A stretch of 64,000 bases of DNA from positions 2,849 through 66,848 of the forward strand of contig JAISFN010000096.1 in the NCBI GenBank assembly GCA_031263585.1, given 5' to 3'. Position numbers and translations under genes: made by a program. Within the stretch, counting starts at the first letter, position 1. Every line of letters starts with the position of its first letter. Source of the stretch: Prevotellaceae bacterium (lineage in GTDB: Bacteria; Bacteroidota; Bacteroidia; Bacteroidales; UBA932). Under the pieces are notes generated by a model. That model was not told the DNA's origin. It saw only the letters and a list, made by a program, of their open reading frames with translations, and did not search any database. Positions 8,578 to 51,430 of the stretch are shown here, in pieces.

Positions 8578-11109
8578 TTAAAATTGTTGTCCGAGAACAA
8601 ATGCCAAATTACCCCCGTTTGCACCGGGACGTCCTGGGATTGTATCGAAACCATATCCCCAATCTAATCCTAACATACCAACAATTGGTAAGAATATACG
8701 TACCCCAAATCCGGCCGAGCGTTTAAGCGAAAACGGATTAAACTGTTTTATATCCGACCATGCATTACCGGCTTCCAAAAAGCCTAGTACATAAATTGTC
8801 GATTGCGGTTGAAGGATAATGGGAAAACGAACTTCTGCAGTAATTTTATTATACACGTTTCCGGCATAAGCTTTACCGGCCAAAGGCGTTAACGAGTTAT
8901 CCTCATAACCGCGCAGTGCAATAATGTCTTGCCCGTACATAACATAACCCGACATACCGCCACCACCAACAACAAAGCCACCGAACGGAGAATATCCCCA
9001 ATCCTTATTATAGTAACCCAAATATCCGAACTGCCCCCGGGCATGCAATATCAAATTGCCCACAATAGGAGTATAAACAGCTCCGTTAAAAGTCCATTTA
9101 TGATATTCAATCCACTTGTATCTTTCTTCTTCCTTTACTTCTTTCCAATGTTTGTTACTAAACAGGGAATATGGGGGCGTAAATTGTACGCCAATGGAAA
9201 AATCGGAACCAACACGGGTAAATATAGGCTGGTCGATAGATTTTCGCCCAAATACTATCTTAAGACTCAAATCGTTAGAATTACCATCTTCAAAAATAAA
9301 GTTACCGCGCCAGTTATTCAACATATAACGCTGTAAATTCAATTCATAATAAAGCGAGAACATGTGATCGGGCCATTTTAACCGGTAACCTAAGCCCACC
9401 GAAAGCCCCATAACTTTCATGCTTTCTCCGGTTGTATTCATATTGCCATAGTAACCATACGGGTCGTAATAATATGCTGAAGTTTGATTTGAAAAATAAG
9501 CGCTTATCGATAACGAAACAGGTTTTTTACCTCCAACCCAAGGCTCCATAAAGCTAATGCTGTATTGCTGGTAACGCTTACCGTTGGTTTGCGCCCGGAC
9601 TGACAATGTCTGCCCGTCTCCCGAAGGAACTGGTCGCCATGATTTAAAATCGAAGAAACGGCGAATTGAAAAGTTTGTAAAACGTATCCCTAAAGTACCC
9701 ACAAACATATTGGCTCCCCAACCTCCCGATATTTCGAGCTGGTCGTTTGCTTTTTCCTCTACTGCATAAGTAATATCGACAGTACCGTCTATTTCATTAG
9801 GTTGTATTTTTGGGAAAGATGTATACAACTTTTCGGCATCAAAATAACCCAGGTTTGCCAGGTTACGAATCGATTCGCGGAGCTTGGTTATCCCGAAAAG
9901 GTCGCCGGGAACCGTATATAATTCACGGCGGGCAACATGTTCATTTGTCTTTGTATTACCTATGATATCAATACGGTTAAAACGGGCCTGGTCTCCTTCA
10001 AAAATACGTACTTCAAGGTCAATGGAATCATTATCAATATTTGTTTCGACCGGGGTTACCCTTGAAAACAAGTATCCTTCATCCTGATACCATGTATTGA
10101 TGGATTGTTCGTCGTTAAGAAGCATTTTATTAAGCGTTACCTGATCGTATACATCGCCTTTATCTATTTTCAGCATCCGGGATAAATTGTCCGATGAAAT
10201 TTTAGTATTTCCAATCCAGCTTATATTACGGAAATAATAGCGCTTACCTTCTTTAACTTTAATATAAATACCTACTTGCTTATCGTTGATTTTATATACG
10301 GAGTCTTCCAGAATTTCGGCATCCCGAAAACCTTTTTCGTTAAAATAATTAATTAGGTTATCTTTATCTTCTTCAAAATTTTCTTCGATATATTTTTTCG
10401 ATTTAAAGAAATTACGTAAGCTCTTTTGCTTTGTTTTCTTCATCGAAGCCTGCAACTTACGGCTCTTTAACTCTTCGTTACCATCAAATGTAATTTTTTT
10501 GATTTTTACCTTGCTTTTTTTATCGACATGAAACGTAAGCTTCACCGAATTTTTAAAATAATTGCTTGTATCGGTTGTTTGTGTTACTTCAACAGTTGTA
10601 TTTAAATAGCCTTTGTCAGCAAAAAACTTTTTTATTTTGTCAACAGCATTTTTTACGGCATAATCAGAGTATGCGCCATTACGCCTAAGCCCCAAATTAT
10701 CTTGTAAATCTTTCCGTTGCCCTTTACGTATACCTGTAATTTCCCAATTATATATACGAGGACGCTCTTGCAAATCGATATTTAGCCAAACTTTATCCCC
10801 TTCAATTTTTGTTATTGTTAAATCGACATTACCAAAAGAGCGTTGCATCCATAAACGTTTTACAGCCTGCTTTGTTGTTTCGCCGGGGATATCAATCATA
10901 TCGCCTTTTATCAATCCCGATATCGAAATAACCTGCTCCGGACTAAAGAAATTAATTCCGGTAACTGTAATATCTTCTATTAGATATTTTTTACGATTAT
11001 CATAATCAACCTTATCCAATGAAATTGAAGGTTTGGTAGTCTCTTGTGCAAATAAATTAACACAAAACAATAAATTTAAAATACCTCCTAATACAATCCA
11101 TTTATTCAT
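8578..11109 (-). CDS. bamA: Outer membrane protein assembly factor BamA
   Basis: 843 aa. Signal peptide, repeated POTRA-like modules, and a C-terminal beta-barrel ending ...GNLAFVLGQQF. It has the classical uppS-bamA-skp context. Confidence 0.9.
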   Translation of the reverse strand: MNKWIVLGGILNLLFCVNLFAQETTKPSISLDKVDYDNRKKYLIEDITVTGINFFSPEQVISISGLIKGDMIDIPGETTKQAVKRLWMQRSFGNVDLTITKIEGDKVWLNIDLQERPRIYNWEITGIRKGQRKDLQDNLGLRRNGAYSDYAVKNAVDKIKKFFADKGYLNTTVEVTQTTDTSNYFKNSVKLTFHVDKKSKVKIKKITFDGNEELKSRKLQASMKKTKQKSLRNFFKSKKYIEENFEEDKDNLINYFNEKGFRDAEILEDSVYKINDKQVGIYIKVKEGKRYYFRNISWIGNTKISSDNLSRMLKIDKGDVYDQVTLNKMLLNDEQSINTWYQDEGYLFSRVTPVETNIDNDSIDLEVRIFEGDQARFNRIDIIGNTKTNEHVARRELYTVPGDLFGITKLRESIRNLANLGYFDAEKLYTSFPKIQPNEIDGTVDITYAVEEKANDQLEISGGWGANMFVGTLGIRFTNFSIRRFFDFKSWRPVPSGDGQTLSVRAQTNGKRYQQYSISFMEPWVGGKKPVSLSISAYFSNQTSAYYYDPYGYYGNMNTTGESMKVMGLSVGLGYRLKWPDHMFSLYYELNLQRYMLNNWRGNFIFEDGNSNDLSLKIVFGRKSIDQPIFTRVGSDFSIGVQFTPPYSLFSNKHWKEVKEEERYKWIEYHKWTFNGAVYTPIVGNLILHARGQFGYLGYYNKDWGYSPFGGFVVGGGGMSGYVMYGQDIIALRGYEDNSLTPLAGKAYAGNVYNKITAEVRFPIILQPQSTIYVLGFLEAGNAWSDIKQFNPFSLKRSAGFGVRIFLPIVGMLGLDWGYGFDTIPGRPGANGGNLAFVLGQQF

Positions 11110-22764: not shown

Positions 22765-23367
22765 TTAAAGAGCAAGCAAGCATTCTTTGATTTTCTCTTC
22801 CAGTATTGATATTTCTTTTTTAACTCCATCTACCCATACCTTACCCCCTGTTTTCAAATAAATTATTTTCCATGTTTTATCTATTATTATATTGGTAGAA
22901 AAGTTGTTATCTAAATTTAAACGCTGGCATTCACCGAGTGATACAGGGACAACTGTATACTGTATGTCATACTTTGCGCTTGTGTTTTTGGTGTCTTCGG
23001 TGTCTTCGGCGCTATCGCTTGTAAAGGAGATCAATTGAAAATTGCTATTGTCGATATATTTATGATACAGATTATTAAGATATTTAAATTCGGCTATGCA
23101 AGGTGCGCATTCTTTAAACCAGAAATTTAATAGTGTTACTTTCCCTAATAACTGTTGTTCGGGTATGGTATTATTATCCAAATCGGTAACGATAAAATCC
23201 GTATATTGTTTTCCAATACTTGTCTTATTAAGGTTATCGGCATCTTTCATCAATTGTTCAAACAGTTTTTCATACTCTAACTTAGGTTTAATTTGAGCCG
23301 ATATGTTTGCAGAGTAAAATACAGATAAAAAGAAGAATATAAGCATAAACCGGATATAATTTTTCAT
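22765..23367 (-). CDS. Secreted thioredoxin-fold (TlpA/redoxin-like) protein, CAPC active site
   Basis: 200 aa. Signal peptide, then LLNFWFKECAPCIAEFKYLN. Confidence 0.7.
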   Translation of the reverse strand: MKNYIRFMLIFFFLSVFYSANISAQIKPKLEYEKLFEQLMKDADNLNKTSIGKQYTDFIVTDLDNNTIPEQQLLGKVTLLNFWFKECAPCIAEFKYLNNLYHKYIDNSNFQLISFTSDSAEDTEDTKNTSAKYDIQYTVVPVSLGECQRLNLDNNFSTNIIIDKTWKIIYLKTGGKVWVDGVKKEISILEEKIKECLLAL

Positions 23368-23445
23368 TAAATATGGTTTCTAAAGCTTTGATTATTATAC
23401 GATAAATTATCCCATCGCAAGCCGCGGTAACAAATTAAAAGGGAG

Positions 23446-24573
23446 TTAATTATTCACTAACTTGTATAACTTTTCCAAATCTTCTTTTCTGCTGATAGAT
23501 ATCTTTTCTTTTTGCATCGTATTCGGATGTACCAATATCATCATAGGTATGCTTCCTACAAGGTATTTTTCTTTAATTTCACGTAAACTATCAACAGCTA
23601 ATAACGCGCGCCATGTAATTTCTTCCTTTTCCATTAATTTGGACCATTCGGCAACAGTTTTACTGTCGTCTATCGATATATATGTCATTTGCAACTTGTT
23701 ACTCAAATTACTGTTTATTTCTTTCAGTAAAGGAATTAACCGGTGACAAGGACCGCACCACGATGCCGAAAACATTACCAAATTATATTTTGAAGAATCT
23801 TGAATTATTGGCTCAGGTTCCCCTGTATCCCATGCAGGTAATGTGCTGTTTTCAAAAATGGTATTTATTAATTCAACTATTTTTTGCCCGTAATGGCTTT
23901 GCCGGCTTTTTTTCGAAAAACAAGCAAACACCTTCGATATATCTTCATATGATTTAAAAGTATATGAATGTTTTAATAAGGATACCAGAAGAAAGCGCGA
24001 GTCGGGATATTTTTTTGCAAGGCTAATATTATCAGCCAAATACTTATCATAATCACCAGCTGTATATAATGATATCATAGACCAGAATACCCCGGTTTTG
24101 GCAAATACTTCGGTATCGGTTGCATGCGAATCGGCCAGAAAATAATCCGAAATGAGATTCGGATGATTTATTGTATGGCTATAATTCCCTTTAATGAACG
24201 AAACGGGTTGGCTTACAAAAAAGTCGCCGGATTTTAACGTATCATTGTCAATTATACATAGCAATGCCACATTACGTTCCAATGCATTGGAATCTGCTCC
24301 GTTCGGAACAATTATTTTGAAAACAAAAATCGAATCGTATTGGCTGGCGGGATAGGCAAACTCCCATAAATAACCGTCATCCGAATGCCCTTTATATTCA
24401 ACATATTTAATAGTTGTATCGTAAGCTTGTTCTAACCTTGCCTGCAGGGTTAATTCATCATATTTTTTACCTTCGAGCGATAAAGTAATGATATTCATAT
24501 TACCGGCTTTTTCTTGCTTGCAAGCAAAGCTGTGAAACACAATACACAATAATACTAAAATTTTAGTTTTCAT
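23446..24573 (-). CDS. Lipoprotein with an unknown N-terminal domain and a C-terminal TlpA-like thioredoxin domain (CGPC)
   Basis: 375 aa. Lipobox-like LCIVFHSFAC, then ...NLVMFSASWCGPCHRLIPLLKE... and ...GSIPMMILV. Confidence 0.7.
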   Translation of the reverse strand: MKTKILVLLCIVFHSFACKQEKAGNMNIITLSLEGKKYDELTLQARLEQAYDTTIKYVEYKGHSDDGYLWEFAYPASQYDSIFVFKIIVPNGADSNALERNVALLCIIDNDTLKSGDFFVSQPVSFIKGNYSHTINHPNLISDYFLADSHATDTEVFAKTGVFWSMISLYTAGDYDKYLADNISLAKKYPDSRFLLVSLLKHSYTFKSYEDISKVFACFSKKSRQSHYGQKIVELINTIFENSTLPAWDTGEPEPIIQDSSKYNLVMFSASWCGPCHRLIPLLKEINSNLSNKLQMTYISIDDSKTVAEWSKLMEKEEITWRALLAVDSLREIKEKYLVGSIPMMILVHPNTMQKEKISISRKEDLEKLYKLVNN

Positions 24574-24618
24574 ATGTTTATCACTTATTTAAATTAAATA
24601 GGGAGACATGCTCCTTAT

Positions 24619-24852
24619 TTATAAATTAATCACATGTACAATTGAACTTCCGTCGCCAGTTGACACGAGTTGACAAGGGCCACCAAAATGGTCCTTACTT
24701 TGATCTAAACAACCTCCACTACAACCACCTTCAGAAGTTGGCTCACCTATACACATCACTCCTGAAGAAGTAAATTCCTCGTATCTGCCTGCAATTTTTT
24801 TCATTTCATCATCGTTTAGTACGAGATTTTTTTTGATAAAACTCTTTTTCAT
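24619..24852 (-). CDS. 77-aa Cys/Gly-rich peptide with a double-glycine-type (bacteriocin/RiPP-like) leader
   Basis: MKKSFIKKNLVLNDDEMKKIAG | RYEEFTSSGVMCIGEPTSEGGCSGGCLDQSKDHFGGPCQLVSTGDGSSIVHVINL. The leader matches the L.....EM..I.GG pattern of Bacteroidota GG-leader precursors, with AG at the presumed cleavage site. The core has 4 Cys and about 20 percent Gly. Confidence 0.6.
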   Translation of the reverse strand: MKKSFIKKNLVLNDDEMKKIAGRYEEFTSSGVMCIGEPTSEGGCSGGCLDQSKDHFGGPCQLVSTGDGSSIVHVINL

Positions 24853-24881
24853 AATAAAAATATTTTAAATTATGTTGCAGA

Positions 24882-25529
24882 TTAATAATATAATTTAATG
24901 TGCCTTTGACTGAAAAGAGAGCATATTTTATCGGCATATTCGTTTTGAATATGGAATTGCTTTAAAACAAAAAGATAGGATAAATATACGCCTATGAAAT
25001 TGGTAATCAACAATAATGATATTCCCCAGCTATAAATAGCATTATTAAAATACATATACAGTATAAAAAAGGGGACGGAAAGTAAAAATATTGCATTGAA
25101 AAAATTATGAATCAATTCCCGCTTTTTATTTTGTTGGTAATCGGGCTCTATTGAATTGTCATTTTTTTCTACTAATAATACAACCCCCGACCATGCCTCA
25201 ATAAATTCATTTATCGGCAATTTTACATTCTTATCCCGCCAAATATAAAAAACGTCTGTTGCGGTAATCTTAGTAACTACAACAAACTCTCCGATATGGG
25301 CAATAAACGGAACTTCGATATCAAAAATATTATCCTCTTTATCGCCAGTTTTAACGCCGATGTTATGAATGTTATATTCCGAAAGCATTTTCGACAATCC
25401 AAATAAATTGTATTTATGAAGATGTTCATTATAAAGTTTATTGGAGTACCGTTTTGTATGTTTAACATTTAAAACATCTAAAACGCAGGCGAATACGTTT
25501 CTATTCTTTGTAAAAGGTAAAAACATCAT
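24882..25529 (-). CDS. Peptidase-C39-like domain protein with two TM helices; it looks like the N-terminal part of a C39-like/VKOR fusion, truncated just after the first VKOR-type Cys
   Basis: 215 aa. The C39-like block is ...NVFACVLDVL...SLSKMLSEYNI...VPFIAHIGEFVVVTK...INEFIEAWSGVVLLVEK. It is followed by two hydrophobic helices and ...ADKICSLFSQRHIKLYY*. Confidence 0.55.
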   Translation of the reverse strand: MMFLPFTKNRNVFACVLDVLNVKHTKRYSNKLYNEHLHKYNLFGLSKMLSEYNIHNIGVKTGDKEDNIFDIEVPFIAHIGEFVVVTKITATDVFYIWRDKNVKLPINEFIEAWSGVVLLVEKNDNSIEPDYQQNKKRELIHNFFNAIFLLSVPFFILYMYFNNAIYSWGISLLLITNFIGVYLSYLFVLKQFHIQNEYADKICSLFSQRHIKLYY

Positions 25530-26193
25530 AATAAAGAAAGTTTAAGGTTTTGTAAAATTAATAAAGATACAAATTACACTTTTGTTTGAGACATTTTTTT
25601 ACATTAAGCTAAATTTTTATAAAAAAAGAAATACCGGAGCGGGCTTCCCCGCCACTACTAAACGATTGTATTGCGTGTTAATACTAAACTACACAGCACA
25701 TGGTAGTTATTTTTATTAAGCGCCTTAAAATATTTATTGCCGTATTATTTTATATTTATGCCACATTTAGTAAATTTGTGTCGTAATAAATTTATTATTA
25801 GAATTATAATATTATCGAAAAAAGAAAAACAAGAACTCGGGAAACCATATAAAACCAACCTCTACTCGGTAGTCCGTAAACGTTGTTTAAGATTACGTTT
25901 GTCCAAAACGCATGACACTATTCCGCCGCTTACGCGATCATAAACGTAAACGAACCACGCTTTATTGGGTTTTTTGTATATTCAAAATTTACTCACTTTA
26001 AACAACTCATAATAAAGATATTATTGTTACAAACGAATTGACGATAACAGGATTTACACATATAATTTTGCTTATTATTAGTTTTCGTACCGCTTTTTTG
26101 TTATATTTGCACCTTGGCAATAAGGTAATGAAGGATGATTTTTATTTACACATACAAATATATCCTTCTTATATTTAATTATTATTAAATACT

Positions 26194-26238: not shown

Positions 26239-27399
26239 ATGATAACGATAAAACAAACCGGAACAAAAAATTTGATTCGTAACGTATGCATTATGTTATT
26301 CTACTTTTTAATAACAGGCAATGTTTGGAGTCAGGGAATTACGATTGGAGCAGACCTCGATCATTTAAAAGGGGCCTTGTTGGATATTAAAAGCCAACAA
26401 GCCGATGTATTAAGTAATGTAACTTCGGACAAAGGCGGGCTGGTATTGCCCCGTGTTAAGCTGGTTGACTTAAATACCCTCCAGCCGTTTATTGCTGTAA
26501 CAGATCCGGATTGGATAAGCAACGCTGATGAAATCAAGTTACTGCATGTTGGATTGATTGTTTATAATTTATCTACTGTATCCCCTTTTGTTGAAGGCTT
26601 ATACGAGTGGAATGGTACGGAATGGATAGCAATTACTACAGGAGCGGCCAATGGTTTAAATAAAAACGGTGCAAATATCGAATTGGGTGGAATATTAAAC
26701 AAAGCCACTAACATTAACATGAATGGCAACAGCTTTAGCGTAACTACCGGCCCTGCTAAAAGAATGACTATTGATGGAAGCCTGCAAACAGATTCCCTTT
26801 ATATTACAGATATTTCTTCTACACAGGGAAATTCAAGGATACTGGTACGCAATATCATTACTGGAAAAATCGAAACGGCCATCGACGAAGTTTCTACGAT
26901 GTGTTTCCTCCAGTCTACCGACGAAACATCTATTTCCAAGGCAGCTATCGAAGCGACGTACGTAGTTACATGGAAATACGATGATGTTGTAACCAACAAC
27001 CTAATGGAACCTATTACTTCTTTTACGGGAAACAGGACGTATTTTGAATTTTCCGACTATGCAAATGTCGAGATAAGCGGCTATGTCGGATATATAGCTA
27101 CTAATGGAACTAATACCGACAGCACTATTGTCGTTAATGCTATAATACAGGTGCAAAGGAATAACCAGAGCACTTGGGAAAATTACACCTCGATGCGTGG
27201 AGTATATCCAAAAGATATAACCGCCTATCGCCAAACATTAAACATACCTCCTGCAATGGTAATCGGGAATCCGGGAGACAAGATCCGCATGGTTGTTGTT
27301 TTGAGGCCATCTAATCTTGGAGGTGGTCACGATGCTCCAAAAATTGTAGTTCCCTATGGTACTAAATTTTCCAAGTCATTAAAAATTATAGCATTGTAA
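26239..27399 (+). CDS. Secreted/cell-surface protein of unknown function
   Basis: 386 aa with a signal-like N-terminus. The N-terminal module is GITIG....LKGALLDIKS...KGGLVLPRVKL......HVGLIVYN....EGLYEWNGTEWI. This is the pattern I recall at the N-terminus of many uncharacterised Bacteroidota surface proteins (VGIGT...L.V.S..KG.L.PR.T......G..VYN....W). Confidence 0.6.
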   Translation: MITIKQTGTKNLIRNVCIMLFYFLITGNVWSQGITIGADLDHLKGALLDIKSQQADVLSNVTSDKGGLVLPRVKLVDLNTLQPFIAVTDPDWISNADEIKLLHVGLIVYNLSTVSPFVEGLYEWNGTEWIAITTGAANGLNKNGANIELGGILNKATNINMNGNSFSVTTGPAKRMTIDGSLQTDSLYITDISSTQGNSRILVRNIITGKIETAIDEVSTMCFLQSTDETSISKAAIEATYVVTWKYDDVVTNNLMEPITSFTGNRTYFEFSDYANVEISGYVGYIATNGTNTDSTIVVNAIIQVQRNNQSTWENYTSMRGVYPKDITAYRQTLNIPPAMVIGNPGDKIRMVVVLRPSNLGGGHDAPKIVVPYGTKFSKSLKIIAL

Positions 27400-27500: not shown

Positions 27501-29621
27501 ATGAGGAAAATTTATATTGAATTGATCTTACTGCTTACAGTATTGTTTTTTTTACCAATTGATGTGTTATCACACGATTACTACGTAAAAATGGCAGGAC
27601 AAGGAAGTAAGACTGGAGGAGACTGGAATAATGCGATGGGAAACGAAGAATTTGCGACAGCGCTTATCACAGCTACACCCGGAGATATTTTTCATATTGC
27701 AGCAGGCACCTACTACCCTGTATTAGACATCAACGGGCAGGTGCCGACCGATTCGCGGGCGAAAACATTTTTATTGAATAGCGGCCTGGTGTTGAAAGGA
27801 GGTTATGACGAAAATGGGGATATTCCTACCGGAGAGGTGGACAATACCCTGGTTCAAGTGTTTTTTAGTGGCGACATAGGGGTGGTCGGCGATTGCAGCG
27901 ACGACGCCTATGGAGTGGTTAGCTATGCAGGAAGCGTAAGCGGTATCGTTCTGGAAAACATTCATATTATCAATGGCTACGATAATTGTAATTTGTTCCG
28001 TCACCTGTTATTTAATGAAGACTTCGGTGGAAATGACGCCTCTGACCCGAGGGTTAGCCAGAACCCGTTGCCGGGCGATGTCGTTACCGATTATCCGTTT
28101 TCGAATGAAAATAAGAATGCTCCCTTTTCCCAAGGTATCTATTACTGGCTATTCAAATATAACATTAACAAGTTTGGGAGCATAAACTCGTCGAAAATAA
28201 CATGGCATACGGAATTCGACGATTGTACCTCTCCGAGTGATACTGTCACCGGCTATATGATGGCTGTTGAAACAGGACGGAATACAAATAAGATATACGA
28301 ACGTACAATCGCGAACCTTCCCGGTTCTACCGAATTGTTTTTTTCAGTAAAACTGGGCAACTTGAATGCGGAGCTGCCCCACACATGGGGATGGGAGCAG
28401 GATCCTATAATCAAGTTCGAATTGCTTGATGCAGGCAATAATGTGCTTATTACCCACATTACCGGCAAGCTTCCCCGCGACGTTGTCGATGGGTTCCAAT
28501 GGCGCAGCTATGGATTTCCTTTTATACTGCCCCCAGGCGCGTCGCCGATTAAACTGCGGGTATCGAACTACCTGACAACCGGATGGCAGGAATCCGCATT
28601 TGTAATGGATGATATCCAAATAGCTTTATACGACTCGAAGATACACATTAAGGCAATCGATAAACAGGAGCAAGAGGTATCTGCGTTATGTGAAAATAGC
28701 GGTCTTAAAATACTGGGCACCTATAAGGATATAGGAGTTTATGGTAACGATTTGGCAGCGCAGGTCGAATTCAAGGCAAAAAACAGCATGAACTGGGTTG
28801 TCTTGAGCACGAATATGGATAAATTGAAGGACCCTGTGGAAATATGGTGGGAAACCGATAATTTCAAAGAGGTGCATGAAGGATATTACAGGATACGGGT
28901 AAGCAATCCGGCCAATATTGATAATGTGAATGCTTCTACTGTATCAGACAGTATATTTGTCGCTTTCAAAGCAAAACTAAGACTGCCGAACATACGTGTG
29001 CAATTATGCCCTTATCCTGAACGTGAAATACAGTTGGGCAGCTATATCGATACTGTCGGTATAAATTTTCTGGGCTGGGAGAGGATGAATACTCTAATAC
29101 CAGCCATTACGACCGGAACCGAAACAACTACTGGTACGATTTATACCGGCGATTTTGGAGAAGGTACATATGCATATAAATATACGGGACAGGGAGAATG
29201 TGATATTGTTTCTGCAAAACTGTACATTACAACCATTTCCAAAACAAAAGGATCATACGCCGATACTATAGTCGTATGCAGAGAAATAGAATCGTCCCGG
29301 CATCTCAACATTAACCAGATAATAGGTATAGAGGCGGAAGGAAACTGGTTGTTTGACAGCAGTATAAATCCTGACAATGTCGTAGCGAATAATATAATGC
29401 TGGTTCAGGCTCCAGCAATAAATGAAGGCGCCTATATATTTAATGCAGCGAATGCCTGGAATGAAGCTACCGATGCGGGATACTTGGTGCAGGGAGGATA
29501 CATGGGAGATATGAACGCCAAAATGTTTAGAATACGCTATACGCTGAACTCTGCTAACAATTGTTTGCAGGTCAGTGTAAAAGAACTGGTAATTATTGTC
29601 ACGGAAAATATAATCCCTTAA
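27501..29621 (+). CDS. Large secreted protein; the N-terminal region resembles right-handed beta-helix / pectate-lyase-fold surface proteins
   Basis: 706 aa. Signal peptide, then YYVKMAGQGSKTGGDWNNAM......ATPGDIFHIAAGTYYP...FLLNSGLVLKGGY, which matches the typical Y-V...G.G..DG.SW.NA...GD.I.VAAGTY start. I do not recognise the remaining 500 aa. Confidence 0.6.
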   Translation: MRKIYIELILLLTVLFFLPIDVLSHDYYVKMAGQGSKTGGDWNNAMGNEEFATALITATPGDIFHIAAGTYYPVLDINGQVPTDSRAKTFLLNSGLVLKGGYDENGDIPTGEVDNTLVQVFFSGDIGVVGDCSDDAYGVVSYAGSVSGIVLENIHIINGYDNCNLFRHLLFNEDFGGNDASDPRVSQNPLPGDVVTDYPFSNENKNAPFSQGIYYWLFKYNINKFGSINSSKITWHTEFDDCTSPSDTVTGYMMAVETGRNTNKIYERTIANLPGSTELFFSVKLGNLNAELPHTWGWEQDPIIKFELLDAGNNVLITHITGKLPRDVVDGFQWRSYGFPFILPPGASPIKLRVSNYLTTGWQESAFVMDDIQIALYDSKIHIKAIDKQEQEVSALCENSGLKILGTYKDIGVYGNDLAAQVEFKAKNSMNWVVLSTNMDKLKDPVEIWWETDNFKEVHEGYYRIRVSNPANIDNVNASTVSDSIFVAFKAKLRLPNIRVQLCPYPEREIQLGSYIDTVGINFLGWERMNTLIPAITTGTETTTGTIYTGDFGEGTYAYKYTGQGECDIVSAKLYITTISKTKGSYADTIVVCREIESSRHLNINQIIGIEAEGNWLFDSSINPDNVVANNIMLVQAPAINEGAYIFNAANAWNEATDAGYLVQGGYMGDMNAKMFRIRYTLNSANNCLQVSVKELVIIVTENIIP

Positions 29622-29714: not shown

Positions 29715-30691
29715 ATGTCAAGACGCATAAAGAAATTAGTTTTCATGGCCAAAGTTCTGCACTGTTCGGAGTTGGGATAAGCTAATGGAGAAAGGCGCCG
29801 TTTCAGCGTGCGATGTATGGTGGTAAGTCTTCAAGTAAAAGGATTAAGCGTTGCTATAATAGCTTCCTAATAGAGATGACGCCTGCTTTGGTCAACCCTT
29901 GGGTGAAGCGATAGCAAAGTGAAGGTCTTTCATGTTTACATGCCAAGCATAGACAAAGATGCACGCCACTCATGGTGATACGGATGAAGAGCCTGTCCTT
30001 GCCGCAACCAAAGCCGTCCGACCCTAATGACTGAGGGAGTATGCTATCGGCGTTTGTGTGGTTATATACAGGGAAATGCTTGTAATAAAAAGAATAAAGC
30101 ATAACGACCTGATTGATATTGAATGTATTTCGAAAAGAAAGGAACGTAAAAAAATATGAATTCGGGAACAAGGCAGCCTCGCTTTATACCGAGAATACCG
30201 AGGTCATCATTGGGGCATTAAGTTTTCGCAAGCCGTACGGCGGGCATATACTTTCACAAGTACTTGAACAACACAAGCGCTTAACCGGTATAACGGCAAA
30301 AACGGTCATCGGCGACCGTGGTTACCGTGAAGGGGCAGAGATTAACAGGAAAAGGGTTCAAATAGCTAAACCATTCAATGATAAAGTATTAAGCAAGTAC
30401 AGGCAGAGGAAGATTCGGATGGCTTTTCGTCGACGGGCGGCTATTGAACCAGTTATCGGGCATGTTAAATCCGATCATCGATTAAGCCGTAATTTCTACA
30501 AGGGTCGTCTTTGGTGACTACATCAACGTGTTATATTGGCAGCTGCGACCTTCAACTTCAAGAAGAGAAAATGAACAAGTGGAAACGCTCGTTGTCTTTC
30601 TGGTTTCTGAGGATTGTGCGACCCAAAAACATATATTCTAGATCCATTTCAATTAACCGTTCCATAATCTGGTTTTTTAAGGGTTGACTAG
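29715..30691 (+). mobile_element. Degenerate IS5-family (DDE_Tnp_1) transposase remnant
   Basis: ORF 30113-30517 reads ...KKYEFGNKAASLYTENTEVIIGALSF..YGGHILSQVLEQHKRLTG...IGDRGYR...FRRRAAIEPVIGHVKSDHRLSRNFYKG. It then needs at least two frame changes to continue GDYINVL / LAAATFNFKK / ...SGFLRVD* (stop 30689-30691). Upstream (29715-30112) only scattered transposase-like pieces remain. I did not identify terminal inverted repeats. Confidence 0.7.
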
Positions 30692-39830: not shown

Positions 39831-40245
39831 AGTGTAATGAATTTTTTAATGAATAAAATTGGATAATTTTTATGTTACAAACATAGTTGTTTATTTTGAA
39901 GCACAATTGTTAAATAGTAATAACTAATGTTAAAATAAATACAAGGCTTCGCGCTGGAGCGGTTTGCAAAGCCGCCCCTGCCTTTATATTTTTTTTAAAT
40001 TTATTGAACATTAGTGTAACAAATCGAAAAAATCATCGTTATATATATAACGGAGTTAAATAGCAAGACTTTTATGTGATAATTTAATAATTTATATGAA
40101 GAGCGAATTTGAAAATTACCTTCACATTCTCTGATTTTTCTTCCGCTGCTCCTCGTTTCCTGACGAGAAATGGCGAGGAGTTATTATTTTACGCTTTACC
40201 GTTCGCGATTAACAAAAAGTCCTGATATTGTATTGGAAATAATTG

Positions 40246-40253
40246 TACATTTG
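40246..40253 (+). promoter_or_regulatory. Bacteroidota -7 box (TAnnTTTG) upstream of tldD
   Basis: TACATTTG ends 37 bp before the ATG at 40290. It lies inside the longer annotated ORF, which supports the internal start. Confidence 0.45.
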
Positions 40254-40289
40254 AACAAAAAAATTTTTCACATTCAAAATCCACTGAAC

Positions 40290-41807
40290 ATGAAATACAC
40301 CAGACGTAATTTTCTCAAACTTGGCGGCTCGGCAGTGTTAGGAGCAGTTATGCTACCTCAATTCTTGCAAGCGCATGCCCCAAATTCTCAGGAAGGAATC
40401 GCCGCTATTCTTTCAAATTTCGGCGTTGATAAGTCCGATTTGCAAAAGGTTATTACAGCAGCGCTTGAAAAAGGCGGCGATTATGCCGATTTGTTTTTTG
40501 AAAACTCATTTTACAATAGCCTTACTTTAATGGACGGGGCGGTGAATCGCGCTTCGTCGAGTATCGATTTCGGAATGGGAGTACGCGTATTGAAAGGCGA
40601 TCAAACAGGCTATGCTTATGTTGAAGATATTAATCTTGAAAACATGCTGAAAGCCGCGCGTACAGCCTCGGCAATAGCGTCGGGGAATACCAGGAAGCTT
40701 TCCTTAAGTGTTAACGAAAAGAAATTCCCGGCTTATTATTCGGCCAAAAATGACTGGAGGGATATTACAATCCCCCAAAAAGCGCCTTATTTGCAAAAGC
40801 TTAACGACGCTATTTTTAAAGCTGACACGCGCGTGGTAAAAGCTTCGGTATTTCTTTCCGACTCAACATCTATTATTATGTTTTATAACTCCGAAGGTAC
40901 GTTTTACACTGATTATCGCCCGATGGTGGTTTTAGGCGCCAACTGTACCATGGAGCAGGAAGGGAAAAGAGAAAGCGGCGCAGCTAACCGTGCTTATCGC
41001 CATGGTTTTGAATTTATGACTGACGATGTTGTCAATCTTTTGGCAAAGGAATCGGTTGATTTGACTTCGAAGATGTTTGAAGCGGTTAAACCCGATGGAG
41101 GCGAAATACCTGTGGTTATGGGCGCCGGAGGCTCGGGTATATTATTGCACGAAGCTATAGGCCATGCTTTTGAAGCCGATTTTAACCGGAAAAATATTTC
41201 GATTTTCTCGGATAAACTGAATAAGAAAGTGTGTGATGAACATATAAGTGTTGTTGACGACGGAACTATTGTGAACAATCGGGGAGCCGTTAGCATTGAT
41301 GATGAAGGCGCTGAAGGACAAAAAACATATATTGTAAAGGACGGTATACTTACAAGTTATTTGCATGATCGTATCAGCGCGAAGCATTATGGCGTGGCGC
41401 CTACCGGCAACGGGCGCCGCGAGTCGTTCCGCAATATGCCTATTCCGCGTATGCGTGTAACGTATATGGAAAACGGGAATGTAAGCGAACAGGACATTAT
41501 ATCGTCGGTAAAAAAAGGTATATATGTTAAACAATTCACGAATGGACAGGTAAATATCGGGGCTGGCGATTTCACATTCTTTGTAAAATTAGGTTACTTA
41601 ATTGAAGACGGTAAACTTACCCAACCTATCAAGGATATTAATATTATCGGGAACGGGCCTAAGGCGCTGGCCGATATTACAATGGTAGCCAATAATCTGG
41701 AGTTGGATAACGGTGGTTGGACATGCGGAAAGGACGGGCAATCGTGTCCGGTTACTCAAGGTATGCCTTCGGCATTGGTAAAGAAACTTACGGTAGGTGG
41801 TAAGTAG
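40290..41807 (+). CDS. tldD: TldD-family metallopeptidase with a twin-arginine (Tat) signal peptide
   Basis: Start at MKYTRRNFLKLGGSAVLGAVMLPQFLQAHA, a perfect T-R-R-x-F-L-K Tat motif. The zinc motif LLHEAIGHAFEAD is present, along with the family C-terminal GxC...G region. Confidence 0.85.
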   Translation: MKYTRRNFLKLGGSAVLGAVMLPQFLQAHAPNSQEGIAAILSNFGVDKSDLQKVITAALEKGGDYADLFFENSFYNSLTLMDGAVNRASSSIDFGMGVRVLKGDQTGYAYVEDINLENMLKAARTASAIASGNTRKLSLSVNEKKFPAYYSAKNDWRDITIPQKAPYLQKLNDAIFKADTRVVKASVFLSDSTSIIMFYNSEGTFYTDYRPMVVLGANCTMEQEGKRESGAANRAYRHGFEFMTDDVVNLLAKESVDLTSKMFEAVKPDGGEIPVVMGAGGSGILLHEAIGHAFEADFNRKNISIFSDKLNKKVCDEHISVVDDGTIVNNRGAVSIDDEGAEGQKTYIVKDGILTSYLHDRISAKHYGVAPTGNGRRESFRNMPIPRMRVTYMENGNVSEQDIISSVKKGIYVKQFTNGQVNIGAGDFTFFVKLGYLIEDGKLTQPIKDINIIGNGPKALADITMVANNLELDNGGWTCGKDGQSCPVTQGMPSALVKKLTVGGK

Positions 41808-41832
41808 TTATTAACCTGAAAAAAAGAATACA

Positions 41833-43152
41833 ATGATTTCAAACGAACATAAAAAAATAGCACAGCAGGCTATGGAATTTGCGCTTAAAAATGGAGCTCA
41901 GGCTTGTCGCGTAAATATTTCGGCATCAACGAATACCTCATTCGAAATGCGTGATACCCAACTTGACCGTCTGGAGCAGGCTTCGGAAAACGGAATGAGT
42001 ATCGAACTTTATGTCGATGGGCGTTACGGCTCGGTATCATCCAATAAATTGAACAAAGAGGATATCGAAAGACTGATTAAAAATGGTATTGATGCCACTC
42101 GTTTCTTAGCCGAAGACCCTTTCCGTAAATTGCCCGATCCGTTGAGATATTATAAGGGTGAATCACCTGATTTACAACTAATTGACAATAAACAGAATTC
42201 GATTTTACCCGATGAAAAATTGACACTGGCAAAATCGGTTATCAATGATGTTTATGGAACCGATAACCGGATTATTTCAACCGAATCGAGTTATAGCGAC
42301 GGCGATTATTTTACTTACAAAATTACCAGCAACGGTTTCGAAGGCGAAAGCGGAAGTACATGGTATAGCTTAGGCGGTAGCGTTGCCTTGAAAGGCGAAG
42401 GTGATGCGCGTCCTGCGGGCTATTGGTACGAGTCGGCCATTTATTTCGATTTGCTGAATAAAACCAATATCGGCAAAACAGCGCTGGAGCGCGGTTTGAA
42501 AAAACTAGGGCAAAAGAAAATCAAGTCGGGCAAATACCCGATGATTCTTGACAACCTGTCGAGTGGGCGTTTGCTGTCGCCGATGATTAATGCGTTATCG
42601 GGCGGTGCATTGCAGCAGAAAAGCTCGTTTTTGCTTGATAAATTAGGCGAAAAAATTGGTTCGGATAAATTTACATTAATCGATAACCCACACATTGTCA
42701 AGGCATCAGGCGCACGGTATTTCGACTATGAAGGTATTGCTACACAAAAGCGTACAGTGTATGAAAAAGGTATTTTAAAAACATACTTCATTGATACGTA
42801 CAATGCTTTAAAAATGAACACACAGCCGACTATCAGCGGAGCATCGTTGCTGGAAATGGAATTGGGGCAGAAAGATTTTAACAGGATGTTAAAAGATATT
42901 AAATCGGGTATTTATGTAACCGGATTTAATGGTGGTAACAGCAACGGCACAACTGGCGACTTTTCATTCGGTATCGAAGGTTTTTTGATTGAAAACGGCG
43001 AACTTACACAACCGATTAATGAAATGAACATTACCGGCAATATGGTTAGCTTATGGGCTAATTTGGCCGAAGTAGGTAACGACCCTCGCTTGACGTCATC
43101 GTGGCGCATCCCTTCGTTATTATTTAATAATGTTGATTTTAGCGGATTATAA
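41833..43152 (+). CDS. pmbA: PmbA/TldE-family protein (TldD partner), no signal peptide
   Basis: 439 aa. It has TldD/PmbA-family blocks (...GIYVTGFNGGNSNGTTGDFSFGIEGFLIENGELTQPI...), lacks the HExxxH motif, and starts 25 bp after tldD. Confidence 0.8.
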   Translation: MISNEHKKIAQQAMEFALKNGAQACRVNISASTNTSFEMRDTQLDRLEQASENGMSIELYVDGRYGSVSSNKLNKEDIERLIKNGIDATRFLAEDPFRKLPDPLRYYKGESPDLQLIDNKQNSILPDEKLTLAKSVINDVYGTDNRIISTESSYSDGDYFTYKITSNGFEGESGSTWYSLGGSVALKGEGDARPAGYWYESAIYFDLLNKTNIGKTALERGLKKLGQKKIKSGKYPMILDNLSSGRLLSPMINALSGGALQQKSSFLLDKLGEKIGSDKFTLIDNPHIVKASGARYFDYEGIATQKRTVYEKGILKTYFIDTYNALKMNTQPTISGASLLEMELGQKDFNRMLKDIKSGIYVTGFNGGNSNGTTGDFSFGIEGFLIENGELTQPINEMNITGNMVSLWANLAEVGNDPRLTSSWRIPSLLFNNVDFSGL

Positions 43153-47260: not shown

Positions 47261-48514
47261 ATGAGGTGGATTTTTATTATACTGATTATATTTTGGAGAG
47301 GGTATGTAACATGCCTCGCACAGTTGAGCTTGGATGAATGCCAGCAATTGGCTCGAGAGAATTACCCGATGATAAAGCAATTCGATTTGATTGAAAAATC
47401 GAAAGAAATGAATCTTTCCAATGCGGCAAGAGCCTATTTACCTCAGTTTAGTATGACCGGCATAGCAAGCCTGGTTTACGGTTTATCGGAGATGAGTATG
47501 CTGGGAGCCGAAGCGCCGGAAAATAAACACCATAAATTTCTCGGGATTGCGCAGCTTAATCAAGTTATCTGGGACGGGGGATCAACTAAGGCTCGGCAAA
47601 AAATTATGGCGGCTACAGCCGAGGTGGATCGGCAAAATATCGAGGTGATATTATATACAATTAATGAACGGATAAATCAGATTTATTTAGGTATTTTACT
47701 GATTGACGAGCAATTGAAGCAAGTAGATATTTTAGATGATAATCTGAGTAAGAATTTAAAACGAGCCGAAACCGCCTGTAAAAATGGCACAGTCTACCCG
47801 TCGGATTTGGATAAGATAAGAGTTGAGATATTAAATTCCGGGCAATCCCGTATCAATTTGAATAGCCAGCGAAAGGCATATATCGAGATGCTGTCGGTTA
47901 TGATTAATAAAAACCTGGATCCTGACATCCAGCTCAATACCCTTACCGACAATGGAACAGTTTTGACGGAAACTATTAATCGCCCCGAACTGAGTCTTTA
48001 CAAACAACAACGTCTTTTATACGACGCTCAAAATTTGGTTTACAATTCGCGTATTATGCCTAAAATTGGACTAATGGGTTATGCAATCGGGCTGGCTCCG
48101 GGTATAAAACTAGGCAACAGTAATATGGATCATTTATTAATGGCAGGCGTTAGTTTATCATGGAATATCGGTGGATTATATACTCGTAAAAACGACCGTA
48201 ACATAATAAAAATAAATCAATTGATGCTTGATGCCCAACAAGAGGCTTTTTTATTCAATACAAATCTTGAACTAAAACAAAGCAATGAACAGGTGAAACG
48301 GACAAAACAATTAATGGATAAGGATGATGAAATTATCAGTTTGTGCGAAAATATTAAAAGGGCTACCGAAATTAAATACGAGAATGGAGCTTGTACAATG
48401 ACCGATTTGGTAAACGATATTAACGCCGAAAACATGGCAAGGCAGAATAAAGCCCTGCATAAAATCGAATACCTGATGAGTATTTATATCTATAAAACAA
48501 TATCAGGCAATTAA
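47261..48514 (+). CDS. TolC-family outer membrane efflux protein
   Basis: 417 aa. Signal peptide, LSLDECQQLARENYP start, and two coiled-coil/barrel repeats typical of OEP/TolC proteins. Confidence 0.8.
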   Translation: MRWIFIILIIFWRGYVTCLAQLSLDECQQLARENYPMIKQFDLIEKSKEMNLSNAARAYLPQFSMTGIASLVYGLSEMSMLGAEAPENKHHKFLGIAQLNQVIWDGGSTKARQKIMAATAEVDRQNIEVILYTINERINQIYLGILLIDEQLKQVDILDDNLSKNLKRAETACKNGTVYPSDLDKIRVEILNSGQSRINLNSQRKAYIEMLSVMINKNLDPDIQLNTLTDNGTVLTETINRPELSLYKQQRLLYDAQNLVYNSRIMPKIGLMGYAIGLAPGIKLGNSNMDHLLMAGVSLSWNIGGLYTRKNDRNIIKINQLMLDAQQEAFLFNTNLELKQSNEQVKRTKQLMDKDDEIISLCENIKRATEIKYENGACTMTDLVNDINAENMARQNKALHKIEYLMSIYIYKTISGN

Positions 48515-48540
48515 ATTAGTACTTAAAAATATTTTTCGAT

Positions 48541-48630
48541 ATATTTTGTCATCCTGAGCGAAGCGAAGGACTTCTTTATTTGATGGGATGCAAAATGCTT
48601 CACTGGCACTCAACATGACAACAGCAACTA
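48541..48630 (-). repeat. MITE-like intergenic element, family A, copy 3 (inverted), inserted between tolC and hlyD
   Basis: ATATTTTGTCATCCTGAGCGAAGCGAAGGAC...GCTTCACTGGCACTCAACATGACAACAGCAACTA has imperfect 13-bp terminal inverted repeats, TTGTCATCCTGAG / TTGTCATGTTGAG. Confidence 0.85.
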
Positions 48631-48708
48631 TACCATATAATTATTATCAATTAATTAATACATTATCTGGATAAAAATAAACGGTAAATTATAAACAATA
48701 GTGATAAG

Positions 48709-49605: not shown

Positions 49606-49722
49606 TTATTCGTTAATGCTTAATAGTAAAGTGTAAAGCGTTAATTTGTTAATGAGAAAATTAAAGAATGTGAGAATTGTTTTCAAATTCATTCATTTAC
49701 GTATTATCTCATTAAAAAAATT
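49606..49722. repeat. AT-rich nested-hairpin intergenic element (family C, copy 2), inserted between hlyD and the ABC genes
   Basis: ...TTAATAGTAAAGTGTAAAGCGTTAATTTGTTAATGAGAAAATT...CATTCATTTACGTATTATCTCATTAAAAAAA is collinear with 14020-14110. It contains an inverted repeat, TAATGAGA / TCTCATTA. Confidence 0.6.
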
Positions 49723-49809
49723 ATATGTCGTGTGCCTTGATACGTGATACCATTTTAAAATTATCCTTTTGTCTTCAATCTATATAAGCTCTAATAAATT
49801 ATTGCAGTA

Positions 49810-51424: not shown

Positions 51425-51430
51425 ATTATT

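Follow-up and report, generated by a model that had tools for sequence, protein, structure and literature searches.

The locus analyzed here raises the question of whether four closely spaced genes, combining a Cys-rich peptide with thiol-redox proteins, encode an undescribed secreted-peptide system or the remains of a known one. A previous interpretation, made without database searches (herein referred to as the sequence-only reading), had named both possibilities. The four minus-strand ORFs, the gaps of 29, 45, and 78 bp between them, and their motifs were as described in that reading. In the whole stretch of DNA analyzed (64 kb; herein referred to as the window), four points were observed directly: the gene for the upstream oxidase is cut, the leader of the peptide carries Arg at position -1, the peptide gene has a 1-nt frameshift, and no exporter is encoded within the 64 kb. 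The oxidase, leader, and frame lesions are mutually independent, and together with the lack of an exporter in the 64 kb they leave the export and oxidation steps disabled in the window. The locus probably derives, by recent decay, from a module widespread in Bacteroidota that makes a secreted bacteriocin-like peptide rich in disulfides.

Truncated oxidase gene and the module in related loci

The first gene (24882–25529, minus strand) encodes a 215-aa protein, identified by Pfam and by alignment to relatives as the remnant of a fusion oxidase with C39-like, VKOR, and DsbA-like domains. Of the two domain searches proposed for this ORF, the one for Peptidase_C39 (Pfam: PF03412) gave a match at residues 21–124 (34.4 bits, cutoff 22), whereas the one for VKOR (PF07884) gave none; PF13462 was also without a match in this protein. 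Residues 1–208 are 42–53% identical to the fusion-oxidase family. The alignment to relatives stops at 'KICSLF', past TM1 and the first loop Cys of the VKOR domain, so the ORF ends inside this domain and not where the domain begins, as had been assumed. What remains is the C39-like domain, an additional TM segment, and VKOR as far as TM1 and the first of its two loop Cys residues (C203). The other loop Cys is gone, as are the TM4 CxxC and TM5 of VKOR and the entire Thioredoxin_4 domain (CNPC). Full-length relatives are 514–551 aa long and contain PF03412, PF07884, and PF13462. Compared with them, the window gene has lost ~315 codons through a deletion of ~0.95 kb, and C203 is the only one left of six redox Cys residues (C-x7-C, CPLC, and CNPC in the relatives). 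A tblastn search for remnants of VKOR or Trx4 in the rest of the window gave no match. All residues invariant across 12 relatives are present in the surviving part, so that the lesions would be recent, unless selection still acts on the remnant. Two proteins that end where the window protein ends, P0005 (251 aa) and P0012 (222 aa), were rejected as natural short forms, both lying 20–140 bp from a contig end.

The C39-like domain is predicted to be non-catalytic in the whole family, including the window copy; Pfam and the relatives thus support its earlier description as the non-catalytic C39-like part of a VKOR protein. No conserved Cys occurs in the first 40 alignment columns, the Pfam match beginning at model position 26, and the 'AH'-containing stretch of PCAT1 (PDB: 4ry2; 'RLAHFVV') is aligned to a gap in the family. 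A profile of the C39-VKOR alignment had no match among PDB sequences, and a single-sequence search of the same set gave only weak matches to PCAT1.

In total, ~75 related Bacteroidota loci were compared. A typical module consists of a gene for an oxidase of 510–550 aa (inactive C39-like, VKOR, and DsbA-like domains), followed by a gene for a GG-leader peptide, usually with 6 Cys, and often by a gene for a TlpA-like thioredoxin. The fusion gene is common, with ~1,400 clusters at 50% identity (E ≤ 1e-30). The peptide gene starts no more than 600 bp past the oxidase gene in 41 of the 57 loci with sufficient room, and the window peptide has the same position. Judging by this adjacency, the fusion enzyme looks like a disulfide oxidase dedicated to its substrate. 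Among the 25 loci flanked on each side by 6.5 kb or more, at least one peptide was found in all 25, a C39-ABC exporter (PCAT) with an HlyD-like adaptor in 16, and a full-length thioredoxin of the 375-aa type in 5. In the 64 kb window, neither a PCAT nor an HlyD gene matching the module was found, which extends the earlier statement that none is adjacent. Decay is frequent among loci of this module and takes the form of deletions, frameshifts, and IS insertions. An oxidase gene intact in a single frame was found in 53 of the 74 loci with a match to the window gene; four copies, the window one included, are truncated or internally deleted, and frameshifts were found in nine other loci. One identical 66-aa peptide is accompanied by an intact oxidase gene in L081, by a remnant in L080, and by none in L079.

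Bacterial VKOR-thioredoxin fusions are functional replacements of DsbB/DsbA, and the structure of a cyanobacterial VKOR-Trx is known. The full-length relatives share with these fusions the loop Cys pair, the CxxC of TM4, a further TM segment, and a CxxC-containing domain of thioredoxin fold at the C-terminus; they differ in having a dead N-terminal C39-like domain, one extra TM segment, and a tie to the gene for a peptide substrate. Neither the core of VKOR nor the Trx domain of such fusions is left in the window copy.

By comparison with known families, the precursor, with a GG leader of 24–28 aa and a core of ~40–60 aa usually containing 6 Cys, would be cut after GG and exported by the PCAT with its HlyD-like adaptor. 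The membrane oxidase encoded upstream would make the disulfides; by analogy with cyanobacterial VKOR-Trx, VKOR would pass electrons to quinone and the fused DsbA-like domain would oxidise the peptide. The C39-like domain, which has neither of the catalytic residues (Cys and His), probably serves as a docking site for the leader or the exporter. More speculatively, the adjacent TlpA-like thioredoxin may proofread or reduce the disulfides.

Peptide gene and its lesions

The second gene is a degenerate precursor-peptide gene (24619–24852, minus strand), in which a leader of the TIGR04149/TIGR01847 type precedes C1–C4 of a 6-Cys core. With a family HMM built from 59 peptides at the equivalent position in related loci, this 77-aa ORF was the sole match among 487 window ORFs (20.4 bits). 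The family HMM and synteny uphold the proposed relationship to the GG-leader, Cys-rich precursors of Bacteroidota, and origin of the peptide from a chance ORF was rejected on the basis of this unique match and synteny. Its score is nevertheless among the lowest in the family, most members having 35–69 bits. The peptide forms a singleton cluster among 5.8 billion proteins; the term 'orphan' is therefore accurate for sequence searches, but not for synteny and the profile. Its Cys columns align with those of the subfamily adjoining thioredoxins of the 375-aa type.

The curated leader models TIGR01847 and TIGR04149, proposed as a check of the small ORF, had no match to the window peptide at a threshold as lenient as E ≤ 1, either unrepaired or frame-repaired. 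The same models do match positional orthologues, TIGR04149 with 26.4 bits (cutoff 25) in L042 and TIGR01847 with 17.7 bits (cutoff 15.7) in L013. The module shares the leader pattern MKK..L..L...EMK.I.GG with the PCAT-exported precursors of TIGR04149 (GG_sam_targ_CFB) and TIGR01847. These precursors have Gly at -2 and Gly, Ala, or Ser at -1, whereas the window peptide has Gly and Arg. Positional orthologues are labeled by NCBI as 'TIGR04149 family rSAM-modified RiPP' or 'bacteriocin'; the 'rSAM-modified' label was probably transferred by the leader only, because the conserved module has no radical-SAM maturase.

The mutated cleavage motif is located at 24784–24789 (minus strand), where G22 (GGC) and R23 (AGA) occupy positions -2 and -1, G-G in the family; the leader thus ends in ...IAGR and is followed by Y. 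In the family register it is 23 aa long and ends in G-R, a mutated GG, rather than in 'AG' as the sequence-only reading had it. According to hmmalign with 87 family peptides, position -2 is G in 83, A in 2, and K in 1, and position -1 is G in 83 and S, E, or R in 1 each, the window peptide being the single one with Arg. C39 peptidases require small residues at position -1. The 'AG' was also considered as a tolerated cleavage motif, since AG at -2/-1 occurs in two relatives (L045 and L070), but was rejected, the window AG being shifted by one position relative to the family register. Counted from R23, the 55-residue core contains 4 Cys, 10 Gly (18%), 7 acidic (D/E), and 2 basic (K/R) residues. 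Cleavage after R23 would leave an acidic core of 54 aa, or of 52 aa in the frame-repaired form.

A three-frame translation revealed an out-of-frame ancestral C-terminus at 24626–24649 (minus strand), AAG TTC AAT TGT ACA TGT GAT TAA, encoding KFNCTCD and a stop. The reading frame was shifted at some point between the C60 codon (24673–24675) and 24649, and the loss of one A at 24648–24649 would be the simplest event. The frame-repaired peptide aligns with relatives through C5-x-C6 and scores 22.5 bits against 20.1 bits unrepaired; a 'CxC-x0-5-stop' string is expected by chance ~0.008 times in such a span. The 4 Cys of the unrepaired peptide are C1–C4 of the 6-Cys framework, with C5-x-C6 surviving in the neighboring frame. 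The earlier count of 4 Cys was correct, but the set is not complete.

The bacteroidetocins, proposed as class IIf bacteriocins, are among the closest known systems, and the layout that the sequence-only reading gave for them (GG leader, disulfides, thiol oxidoreductase, and ABC exporter/peptidase) agrees with the published one (Coyne et al., 2019; PMC6671954). Like the window locus, bacteroidetocin loci are found in Bacteroidota. They encode peptides with leaders of 15–16 aa ending in GG and somewhat basic cores of 42–48 aa with mostly 4 Cys at conserved positions, in the gene order 5-TM protein, peptide, oxidoreductase, and ABC transporter/peptidase (PMC6671954); the family of the oxidoreductase is not named in the supplements of that paper. 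By contrast with this published description, the window peptide has the longer TIGR04149/TIGR01847-type leader (23 aa, ending in G-R) and an acidic core of 54 or 52 aa with the Cys spacing of the ancestral 6-Cys framework. In the module and the window, the oxidase gene, with its C39-like domain, precedes the peptide and the TlpA-like thioredoxin gene follows it. The window locus also has no 5-TM gene, an oxidoreductase cut to a 2-TM remnant, and no PCAT in 64 kb.

Thioredoxin genes and interpretation of the locus

Both downstream genes are intact, and searches with Redoxin/AhpC-TSA and Thioredoxin models confirmed the earlier assignment to TlpA/ResA-like thioredoxins. The export signals of both proteins were read from the N-terminal sequences of the translations. 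The third gene (23446–24573, minus strand) encodes a 375-aa exported thioredoxin, a probable lipoprotein, consisting of a β-sandwich, a helical domain, and a C-terminal TlpA/ResA-like Trx domain with CGPC. The C-terminus matches Thioredoxin_8/Thioredoxin in Pfam as well as NCBIfam models; the β-sandwich and helical domain belong to no Pfam family. For the AlphaFold2 model (pLDDT 91.9), the best Foldseek matches were thiol-disulfide oxidoreductases of Bacteroides (PDB: 3fkf, 4grf, and 3fw2). The fourth gene (22765–23367, minus strand) encodes a secreted 200-aa AhpC-TSA/Redoxin protein (Pfam and NCBIfam) of the ResA/TlpA type with CAPC (ResA subfamily, E = 3.9e-16). Fold, CxxC, and export signal are common to both proteins and the TlpA/ResA/DsbE-type oxidoreductases of Bacteroides represented by these three structures, to which the 375-aa protein adds its N-terminal β-sandwich and helical domain.

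These thioredoxins are not specific to the peptide module. VKOR and peptide genes adjoin full-length homologues of the 375-aa protein in L013, L022, L038, L041, L042, L053, L056, L074, and L078, so that peptide and thioredoxin co-occur in at least nine loci. In three of the four sampled long-contig cases (L075–L077), however, the homologue stands among housekeeping genes with neither a VKOR gene nor a peptide, a situation that corresponds in part to what the sequence-only reading had itself named as evidence against its proposal. One of these, from Ca. Symbiothrix (L076), contains a similar tandem Trx pair. In related loci, the 200-aa protein had weak, generic Trx-fold tblastn matches only, and it is not a specific part of that module. 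The intact thioredoxins most likely persist as ordinary periplasmic TlpA/ResA-type oxidoreductases, apart from the dead peptide. They could alternatively have been kept, perhaps along with the C39-like remnant, as an orphan defence, a periplasmic reductase inactivating the disulfide-rich peptides of neighbors after loss of the toxin. Intact Trx genes do adjoin toxin and oxidase genes that are both dead here, and the 375-aa type is a conserved neighbor of the peptide subfamily in the loci listed above. This explanation is very unlikely, given the free-standing members of the same family, the abundance of TlpA-like paralogues in Bacteroidales (another is encoded in the window at 59454–60626), and the lack of immunity in bacteroidetocin producers (PMC6671954).

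Some features run counter to decay. All four ORFs are open, closely spaced, and in the same orientation; the Cys residues of the unrepaired peptide are even in number; and an exporter or oxidase could act in trans from the genome outside the window. Oxidase-less loci with peptide and exporter exist, and unoxidised synthetic bacteroidetocins were reported to be active (PMC6671954), so that loss of the oxidase alone need not kill the system. These features would fit a working reduced variant, in which a PCAT encoded elsewhere cuts and exports a 77-aa product with two disulfides, another oxidase or the adjacent thioredoxins oxidise it, and the C39-like/2-TM protein is a leader chaperone or immunity factor. 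The invariant residues kept in the C39-like part, the absence of an adjacent PCAT from 9 of the 25 well-flanked relatives, and the otherwise intact oxidase-less locus L079 also speak for such a variant. It is nonetheless unlikely: the Arg at -1 is unique among the aligned relatives at a site where C39 peptidases need a small residue, the canonical C-x-C end kept in the alternative frame is a sign of recent frameshift and not of a terminus that arose by design, and the low family score, the failure of the curated leader models, and the lack of any similar sequence among the 5.8 billion proteins all stand against it. Another explanation is that the lesions are assembly or consensus artefacts of a locus that is in fact intact. 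The window comes from a MAG, and breaks within the VKOR domain are frequent among contigs of relatives (L072 and L073). A second assembly (run SRR14710921), 100% identical to the window across 14.9 kb, possibly derives from the same reads, in which case an error in the consensus could account for the 1-nt frameshift. The sequences nevertheless agree across this span although the assemblers differ, and the lesions are of three kinds: ~0.95 kb has been deleted, one base has been substituted, and a single nucleotide has been gained or lost in a run of only two A's. An artefact is highly improbable.

Decay of a common module therefore remains the preferred interpretation, and the result for the window is mainly corrective: what looks like a thiol-redox peptide system of a new kind is a damaged version of a common one. 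Of the two possibilities named earlier, decay is supported by the lesions, and an undescribed working four-gene system is not, its distinctive traits being those lesions. In comparison with intact relatives, the truncated oxidase, the odd leader end, and the 4 Cys are interpreted as lesions, and the anionic, Gly-rich core is not. Annotation as pseudogenes and two ordinary thioredoxins would fit the locus. A terminator-like hairpin upstream of the 215-aa ORF (25635–25651, minus strand), predicted by consensus scan, may delimit the transcription unit at its 5' end, although the number of such sites does not exceed the shuffle expectation. Scans for sigma-70-type promoters and terminators and a search for the Bacteroides-type promoter (TTTG...TAnnTTTG) gave nothing usable on operon structure.

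Defensin-like signature in the peptide family

The signature of defensins and scorpion toxins, C1..C2xxxC3..GxC4..C5xC6, was found in a subfamily of the peptides and in the frame-repaired window peptide; the unrepaired 77-aa ORF has no CxC and so lacks it. Among 87 relatives, C..CxxxC..CxC is present in 20, of which 13 have GxC. When a profile of 17 cores was compared with the whole PDB, all 27 matches were CS-αβ proteins (scorpion α-toxins and 'Defensin-1') with the six Cys aligned; the best E-value, 0.023, is marginal and Cys-driven. In the CS-αβ fold, disulfides C2-C5 and C3-C6 tie an α-helix to a β-hairpin. The AlphaFold2 model of one relative, P0289, has a β-hairpin with no helix at CxxxC (core pLDDT ~74), and its Foldseek search against PDB gave only noise.

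Known bacterial defensins include actifensins/AMSIN and xanthusin (PMC6989792; PMC8819291; PMC11561630), and bacterial cis-defensins are assigned to Proteobacteria (chiefly myxobacteria), Actinobacteria, and Acidobacteria (PMC8819291; PMC11561630). Their leaders are Sec or non-classical, whereas the subfamily found here has a GG leader. A literature search on the C39-VKOR fusion, VKOR with bacteriocins, TIGR04149, and defensins in Bacteroidota returned no description of the module. Tentatively, the intact relatives may form a large undescribed Bacteroidota family of CS-αβ defensin-like peptides with a GG leader, PCAT export, and dedicated C39-like/VKOR/DsbA-like oxidation, to which the window copy would belong as a pseudogene. 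Cultured strains, such as Bacteroides sp. An51A (WP_143270478.1), would be at hand for testing this possibility. If true, it would extend bacterial cis-defensins beyond Proteobacteria, Actinobacteria, and Acidobacteria, provide the first dedicated disulfide-forming machinery for them, and be relevant to the debate on whether eukaryotic defensins originated in bacteria.

Locus layout and the oxidase gene

The locus consists of four minus-strand ORFs separated by 29, 45, and 78 bp: a 215-aa ORF (25529-24882) with a Peptidase_C39 domain (Pfam, 34.4 bits, residues 21-124), a 77-aa ORF (24852-24619) without a curated family match in Pfam or NCBIfam, and, according to both databases, a 375-aa ORF (24573-23446) with a C-terminal thioredoxin domain containing CGPC and a 200-aa ORF (23367-22765) with an AhpC-TSA/Redoxin (ResA/TlpA-like) domain containing CAPC. 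These ORFs and gaps were found at exactly the coordinates given by the sequence-only reading, and its domain assignments for the 215-, 375-, and 200-aa proteins were borne out by Pfam and NCBIfam. The source is labeled "MAG: Prevotellaceae bacterium" in the database; a second assembly, from run SRR14710921, is 100% identical across 14.9 kb. Two genes are divergent from the locus, encoding a 386-aa protein (26239-27399, plus strand; PF26696, PTL_trimer, in the precomputed table) and a 706-aa protein (27501-29621, plus strand) with no match in Pfam or NCBIfam. A TldD/PmbA metallopeptidase pair is encoded at 40170-43152 (plus strand), with no link to the locus seen; this family is known from microcin B17 maturation, but the pair is also a common set of housekeeping genes.

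Homologues of the first gene are far longer than the 215 aa of the window protein, typically 514-551 aa in 74 related loci fetched from genomes and metagenomes, and the family comprises 1,385 representatives (50% clustering, E ≤ 1e-30). Full-length homologues have the domain order Peptidase_C39-like, VKOR, and Thioredoxin_4, with redox cysteines in a VKOR loop pair (C-x7-C), in CPLC or CVLC at TM4, and in CNPC of the C-terminal DsbA-like domain. The alignment of the window protein to these relatives runs to KICSLF, which contains the first loop cysteine, and then ends. Thus, one of six redox cysteines is left and about 315 codons are gone; no VKOR or Thioredoxin_4 remnant was found elsewhere in the 64 kb by tblastn. 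In the retained C39-like part, every residue invariant in 12 relatives is still present.

The oxidase gene is intact in a single frame in 53 of the 74 loci, split between frames in 9, and reaches the contig end in 8; truncated or internally deleted genes were found in four, including the window copy. Most of the nine split cases (L009, L019, L025, L028, L029, L060, L065, L066, and L074) look like frameshifted genes, apparently reflecting frequent decay or phase variation of the oxidase gene; the match in L025 and L028 has its second part elsewhere on the contig. Two metagenome contigs (L072:8001-8896 and L073:8001-8689) break off within the VKOR domain, very close to the residue of the window truncation, and their called proteins, P0005 and P0012, have aberrant tails. 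Paralogous or variable sequence may have broken the assembly at this point.

The C39-like domain is predicted to be catalytically dead in the whole family and not just in the window copy: no conserved cysteine was found in its N-terminal 40 alignment columns across the family, and the His-bearing stretch of PCAT1 lies opposite a gap. Six hydrophobic segments were found in the full-length oxidases (L042:3130-4713, L013:7992-9605, and others), including an extra one ahead of VKOR TM1, which is one more than in VKOR-Trx proteins. Taken at face value, this even number together with a periplasmic C-terminal thioredoxin domain would make the C39-like domain periplasmic, a location hard to square with binding of a leader that C39-peptidase ABC exporters (PCATs) remove in the cytoplasm.

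The peptide gene and its lesions

In 41 of the 57 loci with room for it, a small gene begins just 3' of the oxidase gene, usually 25-130 bp away. Its product has a leader of the form MKK..L..L..E[LM]K.[IV].GG followed by a Cys-rich core, mostly with six cysteines (C1-C6). NCBI labels for these peptides include "bacteriocin," "bacteriocin-like protein," and "TIGR04149 family rSAM-modified RiPP," and two positional orthologues score above the curated cut-offs of TIGR04149 and TIGR01847. A search of 5.8 billion proteins found no relatives of the 77-aa ORF but itself. Nevertheless, an HMM trained on 59 positionally equivalent peptides had this ORF as its sole match (20.4 bits) among 487 window ORFs, and this unique match together with its position identifies it as a real family member. 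Its score is among the lowest in the family, and its four cysteines occupy the C1-C4 columns of the subfamily adjoining homologues of the 375-aa thioredoxin.

The two residues preceding the cleavage site (-2/-1) are Gly-Gly in 83 of 87 aligned family peptides. In the window peptide the leader ends in Gly-Arg (GGC AGA, with AGA at 24784-24786), the only Arg at -1 among the 87; the Ala-Gly end proposed earlier was one position out of register in the family alignment. The neighboring frame at the 3' end of the gene reads ...WRRKFNCTCD-stop. Restoring one nucleotide (GGA AAG TTC ...; the missing A would lie at 24648-24649) gives a peptide ending in ...STGDGKFNCTCD, which brings a terminal C5-x-C6 into the family's columns and raises the HMM score; the chance expectation of such a terminal string in that span is about 0.008. 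A family peptide with a destroyed cleavage motif (...NEMKNISKE...) is also encoded at L012:7268-7501, so degenerate motifs are not unique to the window.

The sequence-only reading had presented the locus as a candidate disulfide-dependent secreted-peptide operon, either an undescribed variant or a decaying one. Two adjacent genes carry lesions of three different kinds, namely the oxidase deletion with its junction at about 24882-24905, the Gly-Arg cleavage site, and the 1-nt frameshift, and no PCAT or matching HlyD gene was found in the 64-kb window; together these argue for decay rather than design. An operon at 47261-53649 (plus strand), encoding OEP, HlyD_3, two ABC ATPase-like ORFs, and two more ORFs of about 370 aa, was rejected as a PCAT system: it lacks both a C39 domain and any ORF near 700 aa in length, and is of the efflux type. 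The lesions appear young, since the ORFs contain no internal stops and the C39-like part has kept its invariant residues. The window locus is probably a degenerate member of an established type, the Bacteroidota GG-leader disulfide-peptide systems that have their own oxidase and export through a PCAT, beside two ordinary thioredoxin genes. The earlier observation stands, and its interpretation holds in part.

Intact modules and the thioredoxin genes

Of the 25 loci flanked on each side by 6.5 kb or more, every one has one or more peptide genes and 16 have a PCAT, usually accompanied by a HlyD-like adaptor; five encode a homologue of the 375-aa protein at full length. A complete module (L081/L074) encodes the oxidase, a 66-aa peptide, DUF4932, a 388-aa thioredoxin, an outer-membrane factor, an adaptor, and a PCAT. 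One identical 66-aa peptide (P0289, WP_143270478.1, Bacteroides sp. An51A) is encoded at 9001-9201 in each of L079, L080, and L081, which represent variants, within a population, of an island that looks mobile and carries genes for resolvase, RhuM, HipA, and GmrSD. The oxidase gene is intact in L081 (522 aa), reduced to a 267-aa Thioredoxin_4 remnant in L080, and absent from L079, whose thioredoxin gene has an IS insertion next to it; each of the three retains an intact PCAT, adaptor, and OEP. Oxidase genes are lost repeatedly in nature, the same peptide occurring with an intact, partial, or absent copy. In the window, the sequence 4.6 kb upstream of the locus contains a truncated IS remnant (134-aa DDE_Tnp_1 transposase fragment, 30113-30517, plus strand).

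The AlphaFold2 model of the 375-aa protein (pLDDT 91.9) has three domains, a beta-sandwich, a helical domain, and a thioredoxin fold, the last matching Bacteroides TlpA/ResA-like oxidoreductases in Foldseek. In L075, L076, and L077, homologues are surrounded by unrelated genes and have no family peptide in their vicinity; L076 has a tandem thioredoxin pair resembling that of the window. The 200-aa protein has only generic fold-level similarity to genes of the related loci. The thioredoxin genes consequently do not depend on the peptide, and the intact window copies are best read as having an independent function. A weak paralogue of the 375-aa protein, a 390-aa multi-domain thioredoxin (DUF4369 with AhpC-TSA/Thioredoxin_8; 59454-60626, minus strand), adjoins an aminotransferase gene, so such proteins exist outside peptide loci in this genome. 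Additionally, L040:9652-14762 contains three tandem units, each pairing a gene for a GG-leader six-Cys peptide (starts 9652, 11381, and 13161) with a thioredoxin-like gene behind it, which looks like a duplicated peptide-plus-thioredoxin cassette.

Relation to known peptide systems

Direct observation covers the gene order shared by the loci, the oxidase's domains and cysteines, the type of leader, the PCAT and adaptor genes often present nearby, and the three lesions. From what is known of these protein families, the PCAT of an intact module would cut the precursor after Gly-Gly and export the peptide, and VKOR with the fused DsbA-like domain would oxidize it, passing electrons to quinone. 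More speculatively, the dead C39-like domain might dock the leader or the exporter, and the TlpA-like partner might proofread disulfides. VKOR-Trx fusions stand in for DsbB/DsbA, and the family oxidase would parallel them. A dedicated oxidase in the module would be accounted for by the absence of general disulfide machinery from Bacteroides (PMC6671954).

Bacteroidetocins have leaders of 15-16 aa and somewhat basic cores of 42-48 aa, mostly with four cysteines (PMC6671954). The family described here resembles them in its working but differs in leader type, cysteine framework, gene order, and accessory genes, and does not belong to them; none of the traits that define a bacteroidetocin at the locus level is present in the window copy. 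No description of the C39-like/VKOR fusion or of its tie to GG peptides was found in the literature search.

The signature C..CxxxC..GxC..CxC of cysteine-stabilized alpha-beta peptides was found in 20 of 87 family peptides and in the frame-repaired window peptide. A profile of 17 cores had 27 matches among all PDB sequences, all scorpion alpha-toxins or "Defensin-1," in which the six cysteines, GxC, a Trp, and the hairpin Gly all align, with marginal E-values (best 0.023). Published surveys place bacterial defensins only in Proteobacteria (chiefly myxobacteria), Actinobacteria, and Acidobacteria, and one of them demanded a Sec signal, a filter that would exclude GG-leader peptides (PMC8819291, PMC11561630). 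The AlphaFold2 model of P0289, moderately confident in the core (pLDDT about 74), has a beta-hairpin with no helix at CxxxC, and Foldseek found no structural neighbors. Since this model does not confirm the fold, the reading of the intact relatives as defensin-like peptides of Bacteroidota is put forward tentatively, as a rather doubtful possibility. The window feature itself is of modest weight; the family-level observations merit pursuit in an intact locus.
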